Source: an uncultured bacterium | Lineage (GTDB): Bacteria; Patescibacteriota; Kazan-3B-28 | Reading direction: 5' to 3' | Length of the DNA stretch: 64,000 nucleotides | NCBI GenBank assembly: GCA_963695435.1 | Contig: OY968788.1 | Location: 134,330 to 198,329, forward strand | Shown here: one piece after another, positions 2,833 to 44,250 of the stretch | Layout: each line of letters begins with the position of its first letter | How positions within the stretch are numbered: the stretch's first letter is position 1 | Translations under genes and position numbers: made by a program | Notes under the pieces: generated by a model | What the model was told of the DNA's origin: nothing | Databases searched by the model: none | What the model saw: only the letters and a program-made list of their open reading frames with translations

Positions 2833-5388
2833 ATGAGTGAACTCATGCCGTTTGGTCCCAGACACGAGATAGATAAGATTCGCCGTCAAATGAAGGCGCG
2901 GTCTTTGGGTAGAAAAGCAAAGAAGAGGGTTTTCACTTTTCTGTCTCGGTATGGCATCAATACTCCGCCAAAGTTGTTTTTGGCGGGGTTTATCGCCGTT
3001 CTTTTTGTATTCAGTTTCACGATGGCGGTGGTTTCAGTTGGACTTCCGAACCCTGCTAGATTGGTAATTTATGCGGCGACTGATTCGACTAAAGTATTCG
3101 ATCGTGACGGTGCCGTACTTTATGACATCTCAAACGGGAAAAACCGCACAACGATTCCTTTTGAGCAAATGCCTGAAGATTTGAAGAATGCAACTATCGC
3201 TATTGAGGATAAAGATTTTTATCATCACAACGGTTTTGATATCAAAGGATTTTTGCGCGGGACAATTTTGAAACCACTTGCGGGGCAAGGTTTTCAGGGT
3301 GGCTCAACAATTACCCAGCAGTTTGTGAAAAATGCGTTGTTAAGTTCGGAGAGAAGTGTCTTACGCAAAGCGCGAGAATTGATTTTGGCATTTGAGTTGG
3401 AAGCGGTTTATTCCAAAGATAAGATTTTGGAATTGTATTTGAATGAGATTCCATACGGCAGCGGGGCATACGGGGCGCAACAGGCGGCTAAAATGTATTT
3501 TGGGAAAGATGCCAAGGATATTAATTTAGCAGAAGCAGCGGTGTTGGCGGCGTTGCCGCAAGCACCGGGGAGATATTCCCCTTACGGACAAAATCCGGAT
3601 TTGCTGATGTTGCGTAAAGATTTGGTTTTGGCGCAGATGGAAAAGCAGGGCTACATCACCAAGGCGGAGGAGGTGGATGCCAAAAAGACGGAAATAAAGT
3701 TTCAACCTCGGAGGGATTCGATTCGCGCTCCTCATTTTGTAATGTATGTAAAAGAATTGTTGGCGGCGAAGTATGGCGAAAAGGTGTTGGAAGAGGGTGG
3801 ACTGCAAATCACCACTACATTAGATATTGATAAACAAAAGGCGGCGGAAGATACAATCGCTAATTTAGCGGAATCCAACAAAACGAAATACAACGCAGGC
3901 AACGCGGCGTTAGTTTCAATCGATCCAAATACGGGAGAGATTTTGGCGATGGTGGGGAGTAAAGATTATTTTGATATGGAGGCGGAAGGAAATGTAAATG
4001 TGGCAATTCGTGAACGGCAACCTGGTTCGTCTATCAAACCGCTTGTTTATGCCACTGCGTTCAAAAAAGATTATGCTCCTGCAACAATGCTGGTGGATGT
4101 GTCCACTGATTTTGGTCAGGGGTATCGGCCACGCAACTATGACGGAGGTTTTCGCGGACCGATTTCTGCTCGGGAGGCGTTGGGCAACTCTATCAACGTT
4201 CCTGCGGTAAAGACATTGGCGTATGCGGGGGTGCAGGACACGATTGATACTGCGCATGATATGGGAATCACTACGCTAAACGGCGGAGCAGACAGATACG
4301 GACTTTCGCTCACATTGGGAGGCGGAGAAGTTACTTTGTTTGATTTGACTCGCGCGTATGGTGTGTTTGCGACGGGCGGAAATCTGACACCGACAATGGC
4401 AGTTTTGAAAGTGACGGACAAATTTGGTCATGTGTTGGAAGAAAACGAACCTGAAAAATCTAAGCAAGTTTTGGATCCGCAGGTGGCGTATTTAATAAAT
4501 AGTATTTTGTCGGATGACAGTGCGCGCGCTCGAGTATTTGGAATGGGCGGGCTACTGACGTTGCCTGGCAGAACAGTTGCGGCGAAGACGGGTACAACAA
4601 ACGATTACAAAGATGGTTGGACAATAGGCTACACTCCTGATTTGGTGACAGGAGTTTGGGCGGGGAATAATCACAACGAAGAAATGACTGCCTCATCAGC
4701 AATGGTGGCGGCGCCAATGTGGAATAGATATATGAAGTTGGCACTGGCTGGTGTACCAAATAAATCTTTCAGCAGACCTGATGGAATTTCGGATGTGATG
4801 GTGGATGCCTTGTCGGGCAAGTTGCCGGTTGAAGGTGTGACGCCAACAACAAAGTCAGAAGTGTTTGCGAGCTGGAGCGTACCGAAAGAAATGGACAATG
4901 TGCATGTGGTGAAAAAAGTAATGAAGAGCGACACCAGCAAATTAGCACCAGCAAATGCACCTGCGGAATTAACTGAAGATAAAGTATTTACTGTAATTCA
5001 TTCGGAACGGCCGAGTAGTTCAAATTGGGAAGGTCCAGTTCTGGCATGGGCGGCGGCAAATGGATATAACAATGTCCCAACGGAAACTTATTCTGGTTCG
5101 ATGGATGGGAGTGCGACGGCGGAAATTACTTTGACGAATCCGATAGAGGGGGCAACGGTTACGGGAGATTTGTTAGTTTCAGCGAGTGTTAGAGCGGGGG
5201 TAGGTGTGAAGAGAGTTGAGTTTTATTATGATAATTCGCTGAAAGGACAGGTGACAGGAGCGCCGTATCAATTTACGATTAAAGCTCCCAAGCAAGACGG
5301 GAAGACACATACCGTTAGGGTTAGATTGCTCAAGGCTGATAATAGTACTGCAGAGGATAGTGTAAGTATTGTTGCTGGTGGAGGATAA
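2833..5388 (+). CDS. class A penicillin-binding protein (transglycosylase + transpeptidase) with a C-terminal Ig-like extension
   Basis: GT51 motifs EDKDFYHHNGFD and GGSTITQQFVKN; transpeptidase SSIKP (SxxK) and KTGTTND (KTG). Confidence 0.9.
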   Translation: MSELMPFGPRHEIDKIRRQMKARSLGRKAKKRVFTFLSRYGINTPPKLFLAGFIAVLFVFSFTMAVVSVGLPNPARLVIYAATDSTKVFDRDGAVLYDISNGKNRTTIPFEQMPEDLKNATIAIEDKDFYHHNGFDIKGFLRGTILKPLAGQGFQGGSTITQQFVKNALLSSERSVLRKARELILAFELEAVYSKDKILELYLNEIPYGSGAYGAQQAAKMYFGKDAKDINLAEAAVLAALPQAPGRYSPYGQNPDLLMLRKDLVLAQMEKQGYITKAEEVDAKKTEIKFQPRRDSIRAPHFVMYVKELLAAKYGEKVLEEGGLQITTTLDIDKQKAAEDTIANLAESNKTKYNAGNAALVSIDPNTGEILAMVGSKDYFDMEAEGNVNVAIRERQPGSSIKPLVYATAFKKDYAPATMLVDVSTDFGQGYRPRNYDGGFRGPISAREALGNSINVPAVKTLAYAGVQDTIDTAHDMGITTLNGGADRYGLSLTLGGGEVTLFDLTRAYGVFATGGNLTPTMAVLKVTDKFGHVLEENEPEKSKQVLDPQVAYLINSILSDDSARARVFGMGGLLTLPGRTVAAKTGTTNDYKDGWTIGYTPDLVTGVWAGNNHNEEMTASSAMVAAPMWNRYMKLALAGVPNKSFSRPDGISDVMVDALSGKLPVEGVTPTTKSEVFASWSVPKEMDNVHVVKKVMKSDTSKLAPANAPAELTEDKVFTVIHSERPSSSNWEGPVLAWAAANGYNNVPTETYSGSMDGSATAEITLTNPIEGATVTGDLLVSASVRAGVGVKRVEFYYDNSLKGQVTGAPYQFTIKAPKQDGKTHTVRVRLLKADNSTAEDSVSIVAGGG

Positions 5389-5419
5389 CGCCGTTTTTTG
5401 TTTTTTATTCTTTTTCTTT

Positions 5420-5535
5420 TTTGTCATTCCAGCGAAGGCTGGAATCTATTTTTATTTAATTGTTTTGAAGCGCCGAATCGCGCTTCAGCGATTGTTACTT
5501 TCCGCTTGAGGAAAGTAACCAAAGTCGCTCGCCAG
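5420..5535. repeat. composite dispersed repeat: family D hairpin followed by family A (two hairpins gaagcgccgaatcgcgcttc and gttactttccgcttgaggaaagtaac)
   Basis: A near-identical ~85-bp copy lies at 43975-44057. Partial copies at 6863-6900 and 36598-36625. Confidence 0.8.
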
Positions 5536-5712
5536 TCGCTTTCACTCTGAATCTCCCAAAATCCTCTCCATCTGCTTATCACCAAACTCGCTACGCTCAG
5601 ACATGGGCACGCTGATTGGAGGGATTTTGGGGATTCAGTACGCTCAAGCTCCAATGGCGGAAATAAAAGAGGATTGATACACTAATGGTGTAATAATTAT
5701 ATTATTGACAAT

Positions 5713-5730
5713 ATAACAATTTTGTTATAC
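5713..5730. promoter_or_regulatory. perfect inverted repeat tataacaa-ttt-ttgttata overlapping a ttgaca/tatact promoter-like region; probable TA operator
   Basis: Seen directly upstream of the HigB-like gene start at 5732. Confidence 0.4.
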
Positions 5731-5731
5731 T

Positions 5732-6034
5732 ATGAAAATAGAGCTGAAAGTTTTAGAATATGTTGCAGATTTTTTGGATGACTTACCAGTGGAGTTATAC
5801 GCTAGATGTGTAAAGAAGTTGAAGCTTTTTGAAGAATTTGGCTTTTTATTGTCAAAGACTGATCTAAAGAAGATCAATAAAAATATTTGGGAGTTGCGTC
5901 CGGGGGACATCAGAATTCTAATAGGTAAAGCGAAGGGCTGTATGTGGGCATTACACGCATTTCCCAAGACAAGTCAGAAAACGCCTATAAAAGAGATTAA
6001 GTTGGCAGACAAACGTTTAAGAGAATTAAGATGA
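5732..6034 (+). CDS. HigB/RelE-family (Gp49-like) type II toxin
   Basis: IWELRPGDIRILIG...HAFPKTSQKTP matches the Gp49/HigB pattern. Stop overlaps the next start (ATGA). Confidence 0.7.
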   Translation: MKIELKVLEYVADFLDDLPVELYARCVKKLKLFEEFGFLLSKTDLKKINKNIWELRPGDIRILIGKAKGCMWALHAFPKTSQKTPIKEIKLADKRLRELR

Positions 6035-6330
6035 GCAAGAAAAAATTCTACACAGTTAGTGAGATAGAAAAGAGAGCGATGAAGAGTCCGAGTTTTCGTC
6101 GGGCTTACGAAGCATTAGAGCCCGAGTATCAAATTGCTAGGGCGGTAATACAGGCGCGTCACAAAAAGGGGATGACGCAAGGAGAATTGGCTCGAAAGGC
6201 GGGAACTAAGCAACCTGTTATTGCGCGTTTGGAGAGCATGAAGAGCCCTGCTTCTTCCAAGAGTATGGGGCGAATTGCTCATGCACTTGATCTTCGCTGG
6301 GAACTAAAGTTAGTGCCGAAGACCAGATAA
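6031..6330 (+). CDS. HigA-like XRE-family HTH antitoxin
   Basis: GMTQGELARKAGTKQPVIARLE is a Cro/C1 HTH. 4-bp overlap with the upstream toxin gene. Confidence 0.7.
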   Translation: MSKKKFYTVSEIEKRAMKSPSFRRAYEALEPEYQIARAVIQARHKKGMTQGELARKAGTKQPVIARLESMKSPASSKSMGRIAHALDLRWELKLVPKTR

Positions 6331-6339
6331 CGGTTCTCT

Positions 6340-6415
6340 TTAGGTCACTAGGTCACTAATGGACTTATGGTCTGTCTATTTGTCTATGAGTCTATTGTCT
6401 ATTATTCTACCCTTG
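6340..6415 (+). repeat. family C repeat with reiterated gtctat/tggtct sub-motifs
   Basis: taggtcactaggtcactaatggacttatggtctgtctatttgtctatgagtctattgtctatt. The reverse complement of 22395-22470 is closely similar. Confidence 0.6.
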
Positions 6416-6512
6416 CTATATCTTATCCAAGCTGTTAGAGTGGGCACACACAATCCTGCTGTCCAGCAGGATTAGTGGATAAATATAATAGACTAATTCA
6501 AGGAGAAATATC

Positions 6513-6716
6513 ATGAATGATGATATGAATACCCCATTGGATCCAATGGCTGATCAGATGAAGTCTGAAGATGCCGATGCAGTAACTCCAGCAACTCCAG
6601 TCAGCGATGATGCTGAAATGGATGCTGAAGTGGTCGCCGAAGATGGCGAAGCCGAGGCTCCAGTAGCTCCAGTAGTGGAGGATAAGGAAGTCTCAGATGA
6701 GGAAGCTGCCGCGTAG
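6513..6716 (+). CDS. small highly acidic hypothetical protein (67 aa)
   Basis: ORF with D/E-rich composition followed by a clean intrinsic terminator. No recognisable domain. Confidence 0.4.
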   Translation: MNDDMNTPLDPMADQMKSEDADAVTPATPVSDDAEMDAEVVAEDGEAEAPVAPVVEDKEVSDEEAAA

Positions 6717-6726
6717 GTTTTAGGTA

Positions 6727-6765
6727 GTTTTAGGGAAAAACCGAGGTGGGAGCCTCGGTTTTTTG
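6727..6765 (+). terminator. rho-independent terminator
   Basis: aaaaccgaggtgggagcctcggtttttt. Confidence 0.75.
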
Positions 6766-6862
6766 TATAGATTTTTTTGTTTTCTTGTCCTCGGGCTTGA
6801 CCCGGGGATCCAAACATTTTTTTATTTAGTTTTTCAAGGGTCTGCGCGACCCTTGTACCGCG

Positions 6863-6900
6863 GTTACTTTCCGCTTGAGGAAAGTAACCAAAGTCGCTTG
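6863..6900. repeat. family A partial copy (gttactttccgcttgaggaaagtaaccaaagtcgct)
   Basis: Identical core hairpin to those at 5497-5535 and 44021-44057. Confidence 0.75.
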
Positions 6901-7098
6901 CCCACGTCGTCGGAACTATCAATTGGCAAAAATCATCTTTCCGCTAATGGTCGAAACTCGGTCGTAGCCACTCCCTCAAACATCTCCCCGCGGCGATGAT
7001 TTTACTCAATTGATTACATTCCTCCTCCTATGGCAGGGGAAGTTGACTGAGGGGAGGATTACTGATATAAGGGATATTATAGTAAACTGAATTAGGAC

Positions 7099-7437
7099 AT
7101 GAATTACTTTAAAGTTCTTCGCGACAAACTGGCTCGGATGCTATCAGAGCTGGTTTCAACGCAGGATATGGTTCCTAGAGAGCTCGCTGATTTACACGAG
7201 TATTTTAGGCTATATGGTCCTCTAGAGTTTGACTACTACAAGAGTGAAGATGGCTGGGTGGCTGTTAGTAAAAACTTTCGATATGGGAGCATTGTTGCAA
7301 ATGGGCGTACTGATAAAGAGCTAGAAAAAAATATTCCTGATGCGATTATGACAATGTTTGATTTGCCGTCTTCGTATGCCAAGGAGGCAAAGCTACATAG
7401 AGTTGGGGATTACAAAAAGGGGTATGCCTTCGCTTAG
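7099..7437 (+). CDS. HicB-like antitoxin (UPF0150/RNase-H-fold type)
   Basis: YKSEDGWVAVSKNF...GRTDKELEKNIPDAIMTMFDL resembles the HicB N-terminal domain. Overlaps the downstream HicA-like gene. Confidence 0.5.
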   Translation: MNYFKVLRDKLARMLSELVSTQDMVPRELADLHEYFRLYGPLEFDYYKSEDGWVAVSKNFRYGSIVANGRTDKELEKNIPDAIMTMFDLPSSYAKEAKLHRVGDYKKGYAFA

Positions 7438-7675
7438 TGAACTGCCGAGTGATATAAAAAGACCTAAACTTATTAGGGCTCTTAGTAGGGTTGGTTTTGA
7501 CATAAGTACACGAGGTGGCAACGGGACACATTATAAGGCTACTTGGCCCGTCACCCAGAAAGCCTTTTCTATCCCTATTAGATTAGATAAACAAACGCTT
7601 TATTACCTGTTGAAAGAGATTCAGATAGTCACAGGCGGTCAGGTTGATTGGGATACCATAAAAAACAATTTGTGA
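7424..7675 (+). CDS. HicA-like toxin (YcfA family)
   Basis: LIRALSRVGFDISTRGGNGTHYKAT matches the HicA motif (G-F...GSHhhf). Internal Met start chosen at 7424. Confidence 0.55.
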   Translation: MPSLSELPSDIKRPKLIRALSRVGFDISTRGGNGTHYKATWPVTQKAFSIPIRLDKQTLYYLLKEIQIVTGGQVDWDTIKNNL

Positions 7676-7701
7676 TACGACTTTACTAGGCGAGTTTTGG
7701 G

Positions 7702-8379
7702 GTGGGGTATAATCTAGACATGAGCCAGCTCCCAGCAATACAAATTGTTTCTAAACAGCGAGTCTCTGATCACGGAGAGGTTTTTACATCCGAGAGGGAG
7801 GTAAACGCGATGCTTGATCTCGTAAAGCAGGAAACGGAGCGTATAGACTCACGTTTTCTTGAGCCGGCCTGCGGGACTGGTAACTTTTTAGTCGAGATTT
7901 TAAAAAGAAAGTTAGAAATAGTTAAAGGACGATATTCAAAGAACCAGATCGAATTCGAGCGTTATTCGGTCATCGCAATCTCGAGTATCTATGGAGTGGA
8001 CATCTTAGAGGACAATGTTATTGCATGTCGAGAGAGACTATATTCTGTTTTCGATGAGCACTATAACTCACTTTATACGGATAGGTGTAAAAAGGAATGC
8101 AAAGTAGCCGTCAGATTTATCTTGTCTCGAAATATATTATGGGGTGATGCCTTGACTTTTAAAGAGCCAAACGAAGAGGCTCGGCCAATTATTTTTTCTG
8201 AATGGAGCGCGGTAAACGGCAATCTGATCAAGAGGCGGGATTATACATTGGCTAATCTTCTTGAGAATCGGTCTCCCGAGGAAGGGACTTTGTTCTCTGA
8301 TATGGGGGACCGAGCTTTTGTTCCTAGACCAATTGCAGATTTCCCTTTGACACACTTTTTAGGCCTTGGAGTAGAATGA
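7702..8379 (+). CDS. Eco57I-type N6-adenine DNA methyltransferase N-terminal module (motifs X and I only; truncated paralogue of the next gene)
   Basis: GEVFTSEREVNAMLDL and FLEPACGTGNFLVEIL (motif I), YGVDILE. No NPPY. 4-bp overlap (ATGA) with the next ORF. Confidence 0.6.
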   Translation: MGYNLDMSQLPAIQIVSKQRVSDHGEVFTSEREVNAMLDLVKQETERIDSRFLEPACGTGNFLVEILKRKLEIVKGRYSKNQIEFERYSVIAISSIYGVDILEDNVIACRERLYSVFDEHYNSLYTDRCKKECKVAVRFILSRNILWGDALTFKEPNEEARPIIFSEWSAVNGNLIKRRDYTLANLLENRSPEEGTLFSDMGDRAFVPRPIADFPLTHFLGLGVE

Positions 8380-9875
8380 TGCAGACAAGTTATAACCCAG
8401 ACGTATTATCCTGTCTTGCCAACCTAAGTAATGATGAAGTTTTCACTTCACCAGCACTAGTAAATCAGATTCTAGACCTGCTGCCGAGTGATTTGTGGCA
8501 GAATAAGGGGGCTAAGTTCCTTGACCCGGTTACTAAATCAGGTGTGTTCCTAAGGGAAATTGCCTCTCGTTTAATTGTTGGTCTGGAAAAAGAAATCCCA
8601 GATCTACAAAAACGCATAAACCACATTTATCAAAATCAGCTTTATGGCGTCTCTATCACCGAACTCACCTCGTTTTTATCTCGCCGAAGCGTTTATTGCT
8701 CAAAGACAGCCAAAGGCAAGTACTCAGTTTGTGATAATTTCAAAAATGAACAAGGTAATATCATCTTTGACCGCATAGAGCACGCATGGATGAATGGAAA
8801 ATGTAAGTACTGTAATGCGAGCCAATCACTACACGATAGAGGTGAACTATTAGAAACTCATGCATATCAATTTATTCATACAAATGAACCAAATAAAATA
8901 TTTAATAATATGAAATTTGATGTAATCGTAGGTAATCCACCCTATCAGTTAAATGATGCTGGTGCACAATCTAGCGCAAGCCCGATTTATCATTATTTTG
9001 TCGAGCAGGCTATTAAGCTGAAACCTCAATATCTTTCAATGATTATTCCTGCTCGCTGGTATTCGGGCGGAAAGGGGCTTGATGATTTTAGAAGTAAAAT
9101 GTTGAATGATGAGAGGATCTCTGAAATTCATGATTATCCAGAGACTTCTGATTGTTTTCCGGGATTGAATATTAGAGGTGGTGTTTGTTATTTTCTTTGG
9201 GATAAGGAGCATACCGGTAAGTGTAAAGTGACTACGCATAAATCTGGAACTGTTGGAAAAACAGTTGAACGATCTTTGTTGGAGAAAGGTAGAGATGTGT
9301 TCATTAGATACAATGAGGCAATAAACATTTTACGGAAAGTTCAAGCATCAGATGAAGATTCTTTTTCAAGCTACGTCAGCGTTCGCAAGCCTTTTGGTTT
9401 ATCAACTGACACTAAGGGTAGGCCAGAACATTTTAAAGATAGCGTAAAGCTCTATCAAAATGGTGGGGTTGGGTATATCAAAAGGTCAGAAGTGGCAAAA
9501 AATGCTGGGTGGATAGATAAAACCAAGGTAATAGTTCCATATTCTAGTCCCGGGGACGATTCGTATCCACATTTGATTTTAAGTAAACCGATTATTGCTG
9601 AGACTAACTCATGCAGTACGGAAACCTATTTAGTTGTGGGTCCTTTTGACTCGAAACTTACATGCGAAAACGTAAGCTCTTACCTTAAAACTAGATTTGT
9701 AAGATTCTTAATACTTCTTCTTAAGCCGACTCAGCACGTTACCCAGAAAACATATGGCTTTGTCCCTGTCCAAAATTTTAAAGAAAAATGGACGGATGAA
9801 AAATTGTATAAGAAGTATGGTATCACGCAAGACGAAGTCAAATTTATAGAGTCGCTGATTCGGCCGATGGATTAA
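8376..9875 (+). CDS. Eco57I/Type IIG-III-like N6-adenine DNA methyltransferase
   Basis: DEVFTSPALVNQILDLL, a degenerate motif I FLDPVTKSGVFLREI, YGVSITE, motif IV VIVGNPPYQ. Confidence 0.7.
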   Translation: MMQTSYNPDVLSCLANLSNDEVFTSPALVNQILDLLPSDLWQNKGAKFLDPVTKSGVFLREIASRLIVGLEKEIPDLQKRINHIYQNQLYGVSITELTSFLSRRSVYCSKTAKGKYSVCDNFKNEQGNIIFDRIEHAWMNGKCKYCNASQSLHDRGELLETHAYQFIHTNEPNKIFNNMKFDVIVGNPPYQLNDAGAQSSASPIYHYFVEQAIKLKPQYLSMIIPARWYSGGKGLDDFRSKMLNDERISEIHDYPETSDCFPGLNIRGGVCYFLWDKEHTGKCKVTTHKSGTVGKTVERSLLEKGRDVFIRYNEAINILRKVQASDEDSFSSYVSVRKPFGLSTDTKGRPEHFKDSVKLYQNGGVGYIKRSEVAKNAGWIDKTKVIVPYSSPGDDSYPHLILSKPIIAETNSCSTETYLVVGPFDSKLTCENVSSYLKTRFVRFLILLLKPTQHVTQKTYGFVPVQNFKEKWTDEKLYKKYGITQDEVKFIESLIRPMD

Positions 9876-9880
9876 TTAAA

Positions 9881-12385
9881 ATGAGTAAATTTTTTCCACA
9901 ACGGCCGGAGGCGAACCCAGCAATTTACGCCTACGAAGACACAAACCCACAATACGAGGGTTTATTAAAAGTTGGTTTTACCACTACGGATGCTCGAGCT
10001 CGAGTGGCACAACAATACCCAACACGACGCCCAGGGGTATTACCTTACAAGATAGTTTTTGAAGAATCGGCTATGCGCAATGATGGCACTATTTTAACTG
10101 ACCATGATGTGCATCGTTATTTGCGCAAAAAAGGTATCGCAAACCCCAAAGGAGAATGGTTTAAGTGCAGTATAAAGGAAATCACTGCAGCTGTATTGGC
10201 TATTAAGAGTGGCGTTAAGAACGAAGATGATCGGACTCTTAGTTTTAGCATGCGGCCAGAGCAAGAAGAAGCAGTAGAGAAAACTATTTCGTATTTTAAG
10301 AGCTTTAGTAAAGAGAACAAGGGTAAAACTCCACACTTTCTTTGGAATGCAAAAATGCGTTTTGGGAAAACATTCGCTACATATCAGTTGGCAAAAAAAA
10401 TGGGATGGAAAAAAATACTAGTACTTACATTTAAGCCGGCAGTGCAGAGTGCTTGGGATGAGGATCTTCAAACACACATCGATTTTAAGGGTTGGCAATT
10501 TATTGCACCAAATGGTTTAACATTTGGGAGAGCTAATAAGAAAAATCCTTTTGTGTGCTTTGGTTCATTTCAGGATTATTTGGGGAAAAATACATCAACA
10601 GGCGGGATTAAAACGAAGAATGAATGGGTGCATGCTACCAATTGGGATTGTGTGGTATTTGATGAATATCATTACGGAGCTTGGCGAGAGAATGCAAAGG
10701 ATTTATTTGAAGCAGAGGGGGAAAGAGAGTTGGAATTTGGAGAGGGGGAGGGTATTGAGTATTTTGATGAAGGTGCAATGCCGATCACTACTAACGCGTA
10801 TCTGTATTTGTCTGGTACGCCATTTAGAGCTATTGCGTCTGGTGAGTTTATTGAAGAACAAATTTTCAACTGGACCTATTCGGATGAGCAGCGGGCAAAA
10901 GAGAATTGGAAGGGTGAGCCAAACCCGTATGCTTCTTTGCCAAGAATGGTGATGCTGACTTATCAACTGCCTGATTCTATCCGTGAAGTTGCCATGAAGG
11001 GGGAATTTAATGAGTTTGATTTAAACCTCTTTTTTAGTGCGGAGGGACTAGGAAGGAATGCAAAATTTAAATATGAAGATGAGGTTCAAAAATGGTTGGA
11101 CTTGATTCGAGGCTCTTTTTCCGAAACAACGATAGATAATTTAAAATTGGGGGCAAAAAAACCACCATTACCTTTCTCACACGCACCTTTACTAAATGTT
11201 CTATCACATACATTTTGGTTCTTGCCAAGTGTTGCTTCTTGCTATGCGATGAGAAATTTACTTGAACAAAGGCAAAATAAGTTTTATCACAACTACAAGG
11301 TGATTGTTGCGGCTGGGACTAGCGCGGGAATTGGTGTAGCGGCGCTCCCGCCAGTACAGCAGGCAATGGAAGATCCTCTAAGCTCAAAAACCATAACTCT
11401 ATCTTGTGGCAAACTTACAACAGGGGTGTCGGTCAAGCCATGGACAGGGATTTTTATGCTACGTAATTCGTCAAGTCCTGAAACTTATTTTCAAGCGGCT
11501 TTTCGTGTACAAACGCCTTGGACCGTGAATAACCCTGATAGTAAATCGCCCAATAAAGAAGAGGTTATCAAACAAGAGTGCTATGTTTTTGACTTTGCGC
11601 CGAACCGAGCTCTCAGACAAATTGCCGACTACGGTTGCCGTCTGAATGTAAATGAGTCTAACCCTGAAAAGAAAATTGATGAATTTATCCATTTTTTACC
11701 TGTGCTTGCTTATGACGGTAGTGCCATGAAGCAAATTGATGCGGCAGGTATCTTGGATATGGCAATGAGCGGCACTACCGCCACCTTGCTTGCAAGAAGG
11801 TGGGAAAGTGCGCTACTGGTCAATGTCGATAACAACACCTTGCAGCGTTTGATGAATAACCAAGACGCGATGGATGCCTTAATGAGTATTGAAGGTTTCC
11901 GTAGTTTAAATAAAGACATTGAGACTATTATTAATAAATCGGAAGCTGTACAAAAAATAAAGAAAGAGGCAAACGATAAAGAGTTAACTCCCAAGAAAGA
12001 GAAAGAGTTGAGCAAAGAGGAGAAAGAGTACAAAAGTATAAGAAAACAGATTCAGGAAAAACTTATAAAATTTGCTACTCGCATTCCGGTATTTATGTAT
12101 CTAACTGATTATCGCGAGAGAAGCTTGAAGGATGTTATTACCAAGCTTGAACCAGGTTTATTTAAAAAAGTAACAGGTCTTTCTGTTAAAGATTTTGAAC
12201 TATTGGTTAGCCTTGGTGTTTTTAATAGCGCACTCATGAATGATGCGGTGTATAAGTTTAAGAGATATGAGGACGCAAGTCTAGCGTATACGGGTATTAA
12301 TAAGCATGAGGGTGAGGATATTGGTCTTTATGACACAGTTATCAGTAACAAAGAATATAGGCAGACATTTGAAAATCATGAATAA
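9881..12385 (+). CDS. T5orf172 (GIY-YIG-like) domain fused to an SF2/ResIII-type helicase; candidate restriction (Res-like) subunit
   Basis: N-terminus IYAYEDT..EGLLKVGFTTTDARARV..GEWFKCSIKEI (T5orf172 pattern). Helicase motif I MRFGKTF, motif II VVFDEYHYG, motif III LSGTPFR, motif VI QAAFRVQTP. K/E-rich C-terminus. Confidence 0.7.
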   Translation: MSKFFPQRPEANPAIYAYEDTNPQYEGLLKVGFTTTDARARVAQQYPTRRPGVLPYKIVFEESAMRNDGTILTDHDVHRYLRKKGIANPKGEWFKCSIKEITAAVLAIKSGVKNEDDRTLSFSMRPEQEEAVEKTISYFKSFSKENKGKTPHFLWNAKMRFGKTFATYQLAKKMGWKKILVLTFKPAVQSAWDEDLQTHIDFKGWQFIAPNGLTFGRANKKNPFVCFGSFQDYLGKNTSTGGIKTKNEWVHATNWDCVVFDEYHYGAWRENAKDLFEAEGERELEFGEGEGIEYFDEGAMPITTNAYLYLSGTPFRAIASGEFIEEQIFNWTYSDEQRAKENWKGEPNPYASLPRMVMLTYQLPDSIREVAMKGEFNEFDLNLFFSAEGLGRNAKFKYEDEVQKWLDLIRGSFSETTIDNLKLGAKKPPLPFSHAPLLNVLSHTFWFLPSVASCYAMRNLLEQRQNKFYHNYKVIVAAGTSAGIGVAALPPVQQAMEDPLSSKTITLSCGKLTTGVSVKPWTGIFMLRNSSSPETYFQAAFRVQTPWTVNNPDSKSPNKEEVIKQECYVFDFAPNRALRQIADYGCRLNVNESNPEKKIDEFIHFLPVLAYDGSAMKQIDAAGILDMAMSGTTATLLARRWESALLVNVDNNTLQRLMNNQDAMDALMSIEGFRSLNKDIETIINKSEAVQKIKKEANDKELTPKKEKELSKEEKEYKSIRKQIQEKLIKFATRIPVFMYLTDYRERSLKDVITKLEPGLFKKVTGLSVKDFELLVSLGVFNSALMNDAVYKFKRYEDASLAYTGINKHEGEDIGLYDTVISNKEYRQTFENHE

Positions 12386-12812
12386 ATTGAGACCGAATTT
12401 GCAGGCAGAGTTATTTAAATATCCTTGGGATGAGGTAGAGGCATGGGGCTGTAGTCGAGACCAGGCCAAATTGTTGTTCGATCAGGGCTTGGCATCATTT
12501 AACCCGGCCGAAAAAGAAGCATTCGAAGGATACGAGGTAAGAGAGTTAGTTTTTCTTAAGACTTTGTATTTCGATTCTGGTTTGCCCAAGGAGAATGTTT
12601 TAGCAATGTTGGCAGGTCTAGAAAAGCCATATAGTTATTCTTTTGATGAAATATATTGGAATTTTTATCGCAAGGAATGGAACTATCTTCCAGCACCAGA
12701 ACAACCAGAGATTGAAGAATTAGTTGATCAGCTTGTAGAGGACGAAGATTTTAGCCGCTTGAAGTCGGTAAAAGAATCCATCGAAGTGATATTAAAAGAA
12801 AATGAATCCTAA
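12378..12812 (+). CDS. hypothetical protein (144 aa), start overlaps helicase stop (ATGAATAA)
   Basis: ORF translationally coupled to the upstream gene. No recognisable motif. Confidence 0.45.
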   Translation: MNKLRPNLQAELFKYPWDEVEAWGCSRDQAKLLFDQGLASFNPAEKEAFEGYEVRELVFLKTLYFDSGLPKENVLAMLAGLEKPYSYSFDEIYWNFYRKEWNYLPAPEQPEIEELVDQLVEDEDFSRLKSVKESIEVILKENES

Positions 12813-12839
12813 ATATGCGGGGAAAATTAGAAGGAAAAT

Positions 12840-13562
12840 ATGGAAGATTTAAGATATATCCAAAGTGAAGAAAAGTTTTTAAACTATTCTTTTGATGTAT
12901 TGAAAAAATATTTCTGCGATGATCGAAAAAAATTTGACTTGTTTTACAACAACATTTTGGGAAAAAAGAAAAATAAATTCCTTAAAATTGCCTCATTTTA
13001 TAAGTTTTTCGTCGTTGATGGTAGATTCATTGTCGAAAATAATAAACCCGATGATTACATAGATTACTTGGATCACACATATAAATATATTGCTATATTT
13101 TCCTTTATCGAAGACTTATATACGACAGAAGAATATGAAGATTTTTATTCATGGTTAAGGAATAAGAAAACAAACATTAAACTTCCTATCAAAAACACGG
13201 ATGCACTAGACGCATTGCACAAACAATATTTAGATATGCACGGTTCAACTCAAAAGGCAGTCAAGTTTTTTGAGTCATTAGATGATGGAACGAAAAAATA
13301 CATAAGCGATAATTTTAAGATCGGGAAAAATGAAATGACGCAACCACTGCTTTTTGCTCAGTTGGCGGGGTTTCTTTATCAAATTAGAAGTGATTTTATT
13401 CACAAATCGAGAATCATCGCTCAATTTAATGAAGGTACTACTATGCACACAGTTAGAAATAAACTAGTTACAAATGATTTAGATTTTGAAAAAATTAAGA
13501 CGATTTTTGAAGAAGGATTTTTATTATTCTTTGGTTACAAAAAAACTAGGGGTTTTTCTTGA
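12840..13562 (+). CDS. hypothetical protein, very AT-rich; possible HEPN-like (Rx4H) Abi-type protein
   Basis: GC content is markedly lower than in flanking genes. C-terminal IRSDFIHKSR contains an R-x4-H motif. Confidence 0.4.
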   Translation: MEDLRYIQSEEKFLNYSFDVLKKYFCDDRKKFDLFYNNILGKKKNKFLKIASFYKFFVVDGRFIVENNKPDDYIDYLDHTYKYIAIFSFIEDLYTTEEYEDFYSWLRNKKTNIKLPIKNTDALDALHKQYLDMHGSTQKAVKFFESLDDGTKKYISDNFKIGKNEMTQPLLFAQLAGFLYQIRSDFIHKSRIIAQFNEGTTMHTVRNKLVTNDLDFEKIKTIFEEGFLLFFGYKKTRGFS

Positions 13563-13595
13563 TAGAGAAGGGGTTTTGTTGTAGGGTAGTGAGGT

Positions 13596-14882
13596 ATGAA
13601 AGTTACGAAATCACAGGGAGAGAAGAATAAGGTTAGATTATCCATTGCGCTGGAGGCGTCTGAATGGAACGCCATTTTGGATAAGGCGAGTGGGAAGGTG
13701 AGTGAGGGGTTGAAGGTGGATGGGTTTAGGGAGGGGAAGGCGCCGAGGGATATTGTGATTGCGAAGGCGGGCGAAGCCCGCGTGATTAGTGAAGCGATTG
13801 AGTTGGCGGTGGAGCAGTATTATCCAATGGCGGTGAAGGAAGAGAATTTGAAGCCCATTGCGTTCCCGAAGATTTCTGTAGAAAAAGGTAATTTGACTGA
13901 GCCGTTGGAGTTTACGGCGGAAGTTGCCATATTGCCGGAAGTTGTTTTGGGAGATTATTCGAAAATCAAATTGACGAAGAAGACAGACGAAGTCGGTGAT
14001 GCGGATGTGGAGGCCGTTTTGAAGAATTTGCAGAAGAAGGCGGTGGAGTTTCAGGAAGTGGAGCGCGTAGCGCAATTGGGAGATTGGGCGGAAATTGATT
14101 TTGAAGGATTTGTTGAAGGTAAGCCATTTGAAGGCGGTGCATCCAAGAAGCATCCGTTGATTTTGGGTGATAAAGTTTTTATCCCCGGTTTTGAAGAAGG
14201 ATTGGTTGGTTTGGGGAAGGGCGAGGAAAAAGAAATCGAAGTGACTTTCCCGAGTGATTATCACAACAAAGATTTAGCGGGGAAGTCAGCGAAATTTAAG
14301 GTGAAGATGAATTTGGTGAAGGCGGTAAATTATCCTGAAATAAATGATGAGTTTGCGAAGAAGCATGCGGGGCAGGAGAGTTTGGAAGTTTTGAAGACGG
14401 ACATCAAAAAATATTTGGAAGAGGAGTCGGCGAAAAAAGCGGAGGAAACTTTGCGGGAAAATGCGTTGCTGGAATTAGTAAAAGTCGCGAAGATTGATTT
14501 GCCTGAAGAGATGATTGAGCAGGAATTGGATAGTATGGTGCATGACCTCAAACATCAGGCGGAACATAGTGGCATGAGTTTTGAAGATTATTTGAAAAAA
14601 GCGGGAGTGAATGAAGCTGGGCTGAAAGCCCAATGGCGGGAACAGGCGGAAAGTCGGGTGCGGATTGGTTTGGCGCTGGAAGCTTTTCGCGATAAAGAAG
14701 GAATTTCGGCTGACGATTCGGATGTTGATGCGGAAATAAAGAAACTGAAAGTGATGTACCCGCAGGACGGGGAGAACATCGATAAAGAATACGGCAAAGG
14801 TTCGAATGGACGCAGTAAGTTGCAGAGAATGTTGGGAAGTCGGAAAGCCATCGACAAATTAGCCGAACTCTTCACGAAATAG
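13596..14882 (+). CDS. tig: trigger factor
   Basis: GFREGKAP, FIPGFEEGLVGLGKGEEKEIEVTFPSDYH (PPIase/FKBP-like segment), overall three-domain layout. Confidence 0.9.
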   Translation: MKVTKSQGEKNKVRLSIALEASEWNAILDKASGKVSEGLKVDGFREGKAPRDIVIAKAGEARVISEAIELAVEQYYPMAVKEENLKPIAFPKISVEKGNLTEPLEFTAEVAILPEVVLGDYSKIKLTKKTDEVGDADVEAVLKNLQKKAVEFQEVERVAQLGDWAEIDFEGFVEGKPFEGGASKKHPLILGDKVFIPGFEEGLVGLGKGEEKEIEVTFPSDYHNKDLAGKSAKFKVKMNLVKAVNYPEINDEFAKKHAGQESLEVLKTDIKKYLEEESAKKAEETLRENALLELVKVAKIDLPEEMIEQELDSMVHDLKHQAEHSGMSFEDYLKKAGVNEAGLKAQWREQAESRVRIGLALEAFRDKEGISADDSDVDAEIKKLKVMYPQDGENIDKEYGKGSNGRSKLQRMLGSRKAIDKLAELFTK

Positions 14883-43940: not shown

Positions 43941-43975
43941 GCGAGAGACGACCGCTAATTGGCGGTCGTTTTCTT
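43941..43975 (+). terminator. rho-independent terminator
   Basis: gagacgaccgctaattggcggtcgttttcttttt. Confidence 0.7.
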
Positions 43976-44057
43976 TTTATTTAATTGTTTTGAAGCGCCG
44001 AATCGCGCTTCAGCGATTGTTACTTTCCGCTTGAGGAAAGTAACCAAAGTCGCTCCC
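43975..44057. repeat. family A copy 2 (two-hairpin element)
   Basis: tttatttaattgttttgaagcgccgaatcgcgcttcagcgattgttactttccgcttgaggaaagtaaccaaagtcgct is near-identical to 5452-5535. Confidence 0.85.
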
Positions 44058-44250
44058 CACTCACAAATTGCTATCCAAAATAGAAAATCAGACCTTTCTG
44101 GACTATACGCTATACTCGCTACGCTCAAACAACGCTATCCATACCGGCTGATTTTCTAATTGGATAACGCAATTTGCTCGATGGGGTTGGGACAAAGGAG
44201 AAAGCCCGGCGCGGAGACGCAGGGCTTTGAGGAATGCAGGTTTGGGCATG

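Follow-up and report, generated by a model that had tools for sequence, protein, structure and literature searches.

The window, i.e. the whole stretch of 64,000 nucleotides that was analysed, contains five open reading frames on the forward strand between positions 7702 and 13562. Their coordinates agree with those of the preliminary description. The genes and the domains that can be assigned to them are as follows:

7702 to 8379, + strand: ORF1 (225 aa), M1, a half-methyltransferase of about 220 aa
8376 to 9875, + strand: ORF2 (499 aa), M2, an Eco57I-family gamma-class N6-adenine methyltransferase with an NPPY motif, conserved in residues 1-280
9216 to 9755, + strand: C-terminal part of M2 from about aa 281 to aa 460, variable in sequence and presumably its target-recognition domain (TRD)
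9881 to 12385, + strand: ORF3 (834 aa), R, in which a T5orf172/GIY-YIG-type nuclease is joined to an SF2 helicase-like translocase
9926 to 10201, + strand: nuclease domain at aa 16-107 of R, of the T5orf172 family (GIY-YIG-type; Pfam E 4.5e-9)
10244 to 11560, + strand: SF2 ATPase motor, covering about aa 122-560 of R, with Walker A RFGKTF, DEYH, SGTP and QAAFRVQ (ResIII)
12378 (ATG) to 12812, + strand: ORF4 (144 aa), a member of an uncharacterised family, outside the core of the cassette
12840 to 13562, + strand: ORF5 (240 aa), of low GC content, carrying a HEPN-like R-x4-H motif and likewise outside the core of the cassette

The genes are closely packed. ORF1 and ORF2 overlap by 4 nt, ORF2 and ORF3 are separated by 5 nt, and the ATG of ORF4 lies inside the end of ORF3 with an overlap of 8 nt (ATGAATAA). 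ORF5 follows ORF4 after 27 nt, and its start is preceded by GAAGGA. The region has a lower GC content than its surroundings, with 38-40% for ORF2 to ORF4 and 29.0% for ORF5 compared to 44.8% for the window, and ORF5 is the stretch of 723 nt with the lowest GC content of the whole 64 kb. The values of 28% and 47% suggested previously for the last gene and its background were thus slightly off, while the low GC content itself is real. The cassette is chromosomal and located between toxin-antitoxin modules and tig. Neither an adjoining tRNA gene nor flanking direct repeats were found, so that the boundaries of an insertion are not definable. A search of positions 5000-14000 against Rfam gave no match, and a promoter and terminator scan of positions 6800-14000 was uninformative, with counts at or below those expected from shuffled sequence.

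The methyltransferase pair and the nuclease-translocase

ORF1 probably starts at the ATG at position 7720, resulting in a protein of 219 aa; alignments with homologues begin at about residue 14. It contains the methyltransferase motifs X, I (EPACGTGNF), II (YGVDI) and III (GDAL), and carries GEVFTS...FLEPACGTGNFL. The NPPY motif is missing, and its place is taken by a conserved PIIFSEW together with KRRDY. ORF2 carries DEVFTS...FLDPVTKSGVFL as well as VGNPPYQ, so that the motifs quoted in the preliminary description were found as given. Over its full length, ORF1 is homologous to M1.DrdVI (45% identity over 204 aa, E 2e-52), which bears out the proposal that the small first gene encodes a genuine methyltransferase-like partner. 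A homolog of ORF1 is located directly upstream of the ORF2 homolog in 61 of the 61 related loci with enough upstream sequence, which stem from many bacterial and archaeal phyla. Judged by this conservation, ORF1 is an obligate M1 subunit rather than a pseudogene or the product of a tandem duplication. The need for M1 is deduced from this co-occurrence and from its REBASE label, while M2 alone looks like a complete methyltransferase. In the Pediococcus plasmid pRS5, R and M2 are fused, yet the M1-like gene remains separate.

A tandem duplication of the methyltransferase N-terminal module had been considered as the origin of the pair. The N-terminal regions of ORF1 and ORF2 share 32% identity over 90 aa (E 2e-7 in a single comparison), which indicates distant paralogues and no recent duplication. 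As each protein also belongs to a large conserved family of its own, this origin was rejected.

ORF2 matches Eco57I in Pfam (E 3e-40) and, among the PADLOC models, MTase_II (PDLC03375, 4e-65) and REase_MTase_IIG (PDLC03626, 8e-55). It is 51% identical to M2.DrdVI over 521 aligned positions, i.e. over its full length. The NPPY and DPxxKxGxF motifs are conserved across 67 sequences, and the frequency of the majority residue per column in 67 homologues falls from about 0.8 in residues 1-280 to 0.41-0.59 in residues 281-460. Searches of the PDB with single sequences and profiles gave no match for M2 and only marginal methyltransferase matches for M1.

ORF3 is 56% identical to the R protein of DrdVI over 847 aligned positions, again over its full length. 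Its Pfam matches are T5orf172 (4.5e-9; 37 bits at a cut-off of 20), MUG113 (25 bits at a cut-off of 22) and ResIII (7e-7), and residues 118-757 align to positions 152-801 of PADLOC model PDLC03626. No PD-(D/E)xK family was matched in Pfam, PADLOC or NCBIfam. This corroborates the earlier assignment of ORF3 as a helicase that carries an N-terminal T5orf172/GIY-YIG-type nuclease instead of a C-terminal PD-(D/E)xK domain. Within the nuclease domain, 35 sequences have Y16, Y18, K30, G32, T34, R41, E92, W93 and F94 without exception; judging from other GIY-YIG enzymes, we take Y16, Y18, R41 and E92 to be catalytic. Together with the profile match, the invariant Tyr, Arg and Glu residues place R in the T5orf172 branch of the GIY-YIG superfamily.

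All four motifs of the SF2 motor are invariant. R shares 75-91% identity with hundreds of homologues, and between phyla its identity is still 75-89%, although synonymous divergence (pS) is saturated; pN is 0.06-0.15. According to these sequence comparisons, purifying selection on R has been very strong in the different phyla. An AF2 model of R calculated from the alignment of 35 sequences was poor overall (mean pLDDT 48.9), with confident prediction limited to the T5orf172 domain and the first RecA lobe. The T5orf172 domain, with a pLDDT of 70-88, shows a beta-beta-alpha-beta-alpha-alpha topology. A Foldseek search with this low-confidence model retrieved only generic SF2 translocases (Snf2/ISWI, XPB and ZorD; TM 0.13-0.19). 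Because of the poor model and these generic matches, the motor of R is not placeable among those of Type ISP, Type I or Type III enzymes. PDB searches with single sequences and profiles identified no relatives of R with a solved structure.

Relation to the DrdVI family and to other restriction systems

DrdVI is encoded on plasmid pDrdVI of Deinococcus wulumuqiensis NEB 479 by M1.DrdVI, M2.DrdVI and DrdVI and belongs to the 'split methylase' Type IIG family of REBASE, of which MaeIV of Methanococcus aeolicus is the second characterised member. The family appears in PMC6430315, PMC4996451 and PMC10113651, and DrdVI has been described as a fused GIY-YIG nuclease and translocase (PMC4996451). The window encodes homologs of M1, M2 and R in the order M1-M2-R, by which the family is recognised at the sequence level, with full-length identities to the pDrdVI proteins of 45%, 51% and 56%, respectively. 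Both cassettes also share a pattern of partial PADLOC matches. In contrast to the plasmid-borne cassette of pDrdVI, the one in the window is chromosomal and followed by two extra genes. The M2 proteins of the two diverge in their TRD region, and the recognition sequence of the window system therefore probably differs from that of DrdVI. For relatives with M1 and M2 cloned together, SMRT data revealed m6A on one strand of the asymmetric sites GCAGCC (DrdVI) and GCACY (MaeIV).

The order M1-M2-R on one strand is found in the window, on pDrdVI, on a Rhizobium plasmid and in 61 metagenomic and genomic loci, and the cassette is conserved in 80 related loci from many phyla including archaea. At least 589 GTDB species genomes encode members of the family, and clustering at 90% identity gave more than 8000 protein clusters for R and likewise for M1. 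Genes for Bro-N, YhcG and RhuM proteins lie between M2 and R in 24 of 66 loci, as they do in other restriction-modification (R-M) operons. Based on these sequence comparisons, ORF1 to ORF3 (positions 7702-12385) very probably form an intact R-M system of the DrdVI family, with ORF4 and ORF5 as separately acquired cargo. The earlier view that the locus is an R-M system departing from the textbook Type I, II and III layouts is correct. Its supposed novelty did not hold, because this three-gene cassette is already known, the family being named in REBASE and in publications, and does not constitute a new kind of system. No solved structure was found for the family, and the open literature yielded no paper with biochemical cleavage data or a cleavage mechanism for a DrdVI-type R.

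Several known systems resemble the cassette in part. A standard Type III system of Mod and Res, with ORF1 as an extra methyltransferase fragment, would account for the ResIII match of ORF3 and for the modification of one strand of asymmetric sites by the relatives, both of which are shared with Type III enzymes. In Type III enzymes such as EcoP15I, however, Res carries a C-terminal PD-(D/E)xK nuclease, and Mod belongs to a different methyltransferase class. Neither such a Res nor a Type III Mod was found among these genes. The nuclease of R is N-terminal and of the GIY-YIG type, and the region beyond the motor, after about residue 570, is predicted to be exclusively helical in the low-confidence model. 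Moreover, the methyltransferase belongs to the Eco57I/gamma class with a C-terminal TRD, with ORF2 matching only Eco57I and Type II/IIG models; none of the five ORFs matches a Type III model of PADLOC or NCBIfam, and ORF1 represents a conserved family of full-length proteins and not a fragment. This reading has next to no probability and is refuted by the architecture of the proteins.

Type ISP enzymes such as LlaGI and LlaBIII are described in PMC3553950 as one polypeptide with an Mrr-type PD-(D/E)xK nuclease. The window genes do not encode a single polypeptide combining an Mrr-type nuclease, an SF2 motor, a methyltransferase and a TRD, but three polypeptides with a T5orf172/GIY-YIG-type nuclease and an additional M1 subunit. 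PDB sequence searches with R gave no match to the LlaBIII and LlaGI chains, including 4XQK.

A related three-component cluster is DnmA(YeeA)-YeeB-YeeC of Bacillus subtilis, which likewise combines a methyltransferase, an SF2 helicase and a T5orf172/GIY-YIG nuclease in a defence island and modifies an asymmetric site with m6A. There, the helicase and the T5orf172 protein are separate, and one large MmeI-like protein serves as the methyltransferase with no M1 partner, whereas in the window the helicase carries T5orf172 at its own N-terminus and the methyltransferase consists of two proteins. The B. subtilis system provided no phage protection and its motif is not avoided (PMC9973331), and the MmeI-like YeeA had no endonuclease activity in vitro (PMC2731913). 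By analogy, M1 and M2 could serve as a methyltransferase of the orphan or epigenetic kind, with R playing no part in defence, as has been concluded for DnmA-YeeB-YeeC. However, all three window genes are of full length with intact catalytic motifs, and the strong constraint on R across phyla would be unexpected for a relic. In addition, a Vibrio deletion of dnmA and yeeB homologs raised the sensitivity to some phages, as cited in PMC9973331, and the authors of REBASE term DrdVI a restriction endonuclease. A relic or non-restricting system is thus unlikely.

The two downstream genes

ORF4 had no family match in Pfam, PADLOC, NCBIfam or PHROG. It has 194 representative homologues, and the only fusion partners retrieved were VWA and a zinc ribbon. 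Homologues are encoded in contexts unrelated to the cassette, namely beside a Type IIG-like methyltransferase and a Type I R-M system, in the neighbourhood of CBASS and within a DISARM-like cluster. ORF4 is a small protein of uncharacterised function with repeated occurrence in defence islands. As its start overlaps the stop of R, it may be co-transcribed with R and have some functional link with it.

ORF5 has an R-x4-H motif (IRSDFIH, R183 and H188, positions 13386-13403), whose arginine and histidine each show at least 90% conservation among 19 members of the family, in agreement with the HEPN-like motif proposed before. One of its 20 homologues, 71% identical, is named 'Apea-like HEPN domain-containing protein' in UniRef. 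ORF5 shares the conserved R-x4-H near the C-terminus with this superfamily. No HEPN family was among the Pfam matches of the 19 members at E values up to 1, and searches of PADLOC, NCBIfam, PHROG and PDB sequences gave no HEPN match for ORF5. ORF5 is probably a stand-alone HEPN-type RNase or toxin.

The preliminary description had combined all five genes into a composite R-M/Abi system, in which ORF4 and ORF5 would act with M1-M2-R, e.g. as an abortive-infection back-up when restriction fails. The tight spacing on one strand, in particular the overlap of ORF4 with R, the conserved R-x4-H of ORF5 and the repeated occurrence of ORF4 relatives directly after methyltransferase or R-M genes in other defence islands are consistent with such a system. 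Against it, neither gene occurs in any of the 80 related cassettes, including the closest ones with 88-89% identity in R, and for this reason ORF4 and ORF5 are not regarded as core components. No protein family downstream of R recurs in three or more loci. Homologues of ORF5 occur alone in unrelated, non-defence contexts and never beside a homolog of ORF4, so that a two-gene module of ORF4 and ORF5 was also rejected. The ORF5 homologues are poorer in GC than their surroundings everywhere, as is ORF5 itself compared to the 38-40% of its neighbours. The composite system is accordingly an improbable reading, and the three-gene DrdVI-type cassette with separate cargo is preferred.

Proposed function and significance

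For the three-gene cassette, homology, gene order, linkage of M1, M2 and R, intact catalytic motifs and purifying selection form the basis of the following scheme. M2 would be the catalytic N6-adenine methyltransferase, reading a short asymmetric DNA sequence via its variable C-terminal domain. M1, which lacks the catalytic NPPY but has a canonical half-fold for SAM binding, would be its obligate small partner, and the two proteins presumably form a heteromer, together constituting the 'split methylase'. R may be recruited at unmethylated sites, would move along the DNA by means of its SF2 ATPase and would cut with its N-terminal T5orf172/GIY-YIG-type nuclease, possibly depending on the orientation of the sites. 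Overall, this would resemble a Type ISP-like enzyme distributed over three polypeptides and equipped with a nuclease of a different family.

A more far-reaching proposal is put forward only tentatively. The DrdVI family might represent a distinct class of translocating R-M systems, in which a catalytically dead, SAM-binding M1 is an obligate third subunit that either completes a split active site with M2 or acts as a SAM-sensing bridge from recognition by M2 to the GIY-YIG motor. The nearly complete constraint on the sequence of R in bacteria and archaea might then reflect a multi-partner machine, and ORF4 might be a new accessory factor associated with R-M and DISARM systems.

Since dedicated models for the unfused R or M1 of this family are missing from PADLOC and NCBIfam, DrdVI-family loci are likely to appear as an orphan methylase next to a 'GIY-YIG nuclease family protein' or a 'DEAD/DEAH box helicase'. 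Recognising the cassette avoids repeated calls of novel systems. The locus adds nothing categorically new to a family that is very common and poorly studied; the role of the obligate, NPPY-less M1 is a tractable question raised by this family.

Gene content and identity of the cassette

The preliminary description had placed five ORFs between 7702 and 13562, and all five were recovered there, on the plus strand:

ORF1 (M1), 7702-8379, plus strand, 225 aa
ORF2 (M2), 8376-9875, plus strand, 499 aa
ORF3 (R), 9881-12385, plus strand, 834 aa
ORF4, ATG at 12378, end at 12812, plus strand, 144 aa
ORF5, 12840-13562, plus strand, 240 aa

The motifs quoted for the two MTase-like ORFs were also found, namely GEVFTS/FLEPACGTGNFL in ORF1, in which NPPY is absent, and DEVFTS/FLDPVTKSGVFL together with VGNPPYQ in ORF2. 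In Pfam, ORF2 is identified as Eco57I (E 3e-40), ORF1 has sub-threshold MTase matches only, ORF3 matches T5orf172 (4.5e-9), MUG113, and ResIII (7e-7), and nothing credible was obtained for ORF4 and ORF5. The junctions are tight: ORF1 and ORF2 overlap by 4 nt, ORF2 and ORF3 are spaced by 5 nt, and the ATG of ORF4 overlaps the end of ORF3 (ATGAATAA). ORF5 starts 27 nt past ORF4 and is preceded by GAAGGA. Its low GC content stood as well, with 29.0% compared to 44.8% for the window and 38-40% for ORF2-ORF4; ORF5 is the lowest-GC 723-nt stretch in the entire window.

A protein search of plasmids revealed the same three genes M1-M2-R (the cassette, 7702-12385) on pDrdVI of Deinococcus wulumuqiensis NEB 479, with identities of 45% (M1), 51% (M2), and 56% (R) over essentially the full length. 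The pDrdVI entry reads 'M1-2.DrdVI, GCAGCC, 6mA, IIG', and the MTase genes have been cloned in E. coli (Fomenkov et al. 2019; PMC6430315); the family has also been described by Anton et al. and in another paper by Fomenkov et al. Based on this match and these papers, the cassette is assigned to the known, REBASE-catalogued DrdVI family of 'split methylase' R-M systems, and every feature of this family that can be checked in sequence is present at the window locus. Similar arrangements have been mentioned elsewhere: the MmeI paper reports MTases whose flanking genes encode a helicase and a GIY-YIG protein, and remarks that systems of this helicase-associated kind 'have received little attention' (PMC2731913), and a passage of a Type ISP paper refers to related enzymes with 'different endonuclease families (e.g. 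GIY-YIG)' (PMC3553950).

Conservation of the cassette among relatives

ORF3 has more than 8000 homologues, the best 120 of which share 80-91% identity over the full length. In a GTDB scan with one genome per species, at least 589 relatives were found and 80 loci were kept, in which R identity is 74-89%. These loci belong to CPR, Proteobacteria, Bacteroidota, Planctomycetota, Chloroflexota, Cyanobacteria, Actinobacteria, and Spirochaetota as well as to the archaeal Thermoplasmata and Woesearchaeota. Directly upstream of the ORF3 homologue, homologues of ORF2 (50-67%) and ORF1 (50-69%) are encoded. Wherever the ORF2 homologue is full-length and at least 700 nt of sequence precede it (61 loci), an ORF1 homologue is present, usually at a distance of 5-26 nt. 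Homologues of ORF1 also number more than 8000, with sizes of 214-235 aa among the matches listed. Judged by the number and size of these homologues and by their upstream position in 61 of 61 loci, ORF1 is a conserved protein, which rules out a fragment. A recent duplicate of ORF2 is rejected as well, because ORF1 forms its own large family and its identity to the N-terminal part of ORF2 is no more than 32% over 90 aa; the tandem duplication of an MTase module considered in the preliminary description was thus abandoned.

The PADLOC model REase_MTase_IIG PDLC03626 (1359 positions) matches ORF3 with positions 152-801 and ORF2 with positions 863-1359, so fused relatives are already contained in this REBASE-derived library. 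Such a fused variant, consisting of T5orf172, helicase, and M2 (1417 aa), is encoded on Pediococcus pentosaceus pRS5 (L088, 2188-7364) and matches PDLC03626 with E 1e-117. A separate gene for a 306-aa M1-like protein lies upstream (hhalign probability 87%; PDLC03390, E 1e-73), and its retention beside the R-M2 fusion argues for M1 as a distinct and necessary subunit. The M1-like protein of pRS5 has an insertion within motif I. In the list of plasmid matches, those below 60% identity are commonest in Enterococcus (32 records), followed by Lactococcus (9).

An insert of 0.3-2.9 kb separates M2 and R in 24 of 66 related cassettes, among them L005, L011, L012, L022, L026, L027, L034, L038, L040-L044, L051, L055, L059, L067, L068, L073, L075, and L080. 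Recurrent insert families are Bro-N (~286 aa, 13 loci), YhcG/DUF1016 PDDEXK (8), and RhuM (5), all of which are hitch-hikers of Type I R-M operons; the M1-M2 gap carries insertions in 5 loci. In a Methylococcaceae MAG (L007, 8302-12487), R is full-length, M2 is reduced to its last 134 residues, and no M1 was found in 10 kb of upstream sequence; this copy may be decaying or rearranged.

ORF4, ORF5, and the surrounding islet

The preliminary description had combined all five ORFs into one composite system. Homologues of ORF4 and ORF5 are found in none of the 80 related loci, the closest ones included, and downstream of R no protein family is shared by as many as three loci. The homologues occur in separate contexts, for which the following genes were compared:

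ORF4 family, homologue contexts: window 12378-12812; L090 1387-1821; L091 5001-5471; L092 258-725
ORF5 family, GC: window 12840-13562; L081 6001-6978; L082 2822-3526; L083 2450-3172

About 20 homologues of ORF5 exist, one of which is named 'Apea-like HEPN domain-containing protein' in UniRef. The R-x4-H motif noticed earlier is present as IRSDFIH, with R183 and H188 conserved to at least 90% in the family; no HEPN profile and no PDB chain was matched. The contexts of ORF5 homologues are mutually unrelated: one, with a ~90-residue N-terminal extension, is surrounded by metabolic genes, others follow unknown genes, and none adjoins an ORF4 homologue in the contexts examined. In four out of four distinct contexts, GC is lower than in the surroundings (0.29/0.45, 0.43/0.58, 0.28/0.46, 0.26/0.32), which suggests that ORF5 is a singleton gene that moves independently.

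The family of ORF4 is unannotated and consists of ~150-aa proteins, with 194 representative homologues, some with a VWA-domain fusion. Of four close homologues, the first is encoded 3 nt past a Type IIG-like MTase gene and is itself followed by a Type I system, another adjoins an MmeI/Eco57I MTase within a DISARM-like cluster, and a third shares its contig with CBASS genes; the contig of the fourth is too short for an assessment. A loose functional link to MTase/R-M genes is possible, and ORF4 may represent an accessory of methylation-based defence that has gone unrecognised. Given their absence from the 80 loci and their own unrelated contexts, ORF4 and ORF5 are regarded as independent cargo and not as parts of a five-gene system.

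Together with the cassette, they are located between the PBP1A gene and tig, in a small islet of TA and defence genes. This accessory islet of ~8 kb comprises two addiction-type modules, the R-M cassette, and ORF4/ORF5. The modules, and an intergenic element that also occurs elsewhere in the window, map as follows:

5732-6330, TA module just upstream of the cassette: Gp49-like toxin (PF05973, 6e-16) and HTH_3 antitoxin
7099-7675, TA-type module just upstream of the cassette: HicA-like ORF 7358-7675 (sub-threshold), overlapping an unannotated 112-aa ORF (7099-7437)
5449-5533, 6819-6902, and about 43975-44058: three copies of a ~90-nt intergenic element

The Gp49/HTH module is flanked by two copies of this element, which ends in a perfect hairpin GTTACTTTCC-GCTTGA-GGAAAGTAAC plus CAAAGTCGCT. 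All three copies share an identical 36-nt core (0 expected by chance), and an Rfam scan of 5000-14000, covering two of them, yielded no match.

Constraint, proposed working, and relation to other R-M types

Residues 1-280 of M2 are conserved (majority frequency ~0.8), including NPPY and motif I DPxxKxGxF, and residues 281-460 are variable (0.41-0.59), presumably as expected of a target-recognition domain diversifying specificity. As had been proposed, the helicase R carries an N-terminal T5orf172 domain, a GIY-YIG-type nuclease domain, in which Y16, Y18, K30, G32, T34, R41, and E92-W-F are invariant, and it matches no PD-(D/E)xK family in Pfam, PADLOC, or NCBIfam. Invariant in the motor are Walker A RFGKTF, DEYH, SGTP, and QAAFRVQ; the part past the motor is predicted to be helical, with low confidence in the structure model.

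In comparisons of the window with eight relatives, synonymous sites are saturated (pS 0.76-1.04, with 0.77-1.04 for R). The pN values amount to 0.06-0.15 in R, 0.19-0.31 in M1, and 0.22-0.34 in M2, so that the evolutionary rate of M1 and M2 is two to four times that of R. About 440 of 834 columns of R are invariant in 35 sequences. The cross-phylum identity of R thus reflects strong purifying selection and not recent spread. Such constraint, with 74-89% identity between bacterial and archaeal phyla across the window and the 80 loci, is unusual for a restriction enzyme. The selection on R speaks against the cassette being a decaying relic, a reading that, even taken jointly with a non-restricting cassette, is improbable.

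Type III systems are defined by a Res with a C-terminal PD-(D/E)xK and a Type III Mod, whereas the window locus has neither; the standard Type III layout against which the preliminary description had set this locus is further contradicted by ORF1 representing a genuine MTase-like family. The single chain and Mrr nuclease that define Type ISP are likewise absent. The system probably works like Type ISP. In both known DrdVI-family motifs, the methylated adenine is on one strand (PMC6430315 among sources), from which we infer that cleavage by R would be translocation-coupled and sensitive to site orientation, as in Type ISP and Type III. For M1, two roles are conceivable: that of a dead paralogue with a scaffolding or regulatory function for M2, or that of one half of an active site that is truly split.

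The window locus adds no new architecture. It represents a very abundant and under-studied family without a solved structure for R, in which the role of M1 is a testable question.
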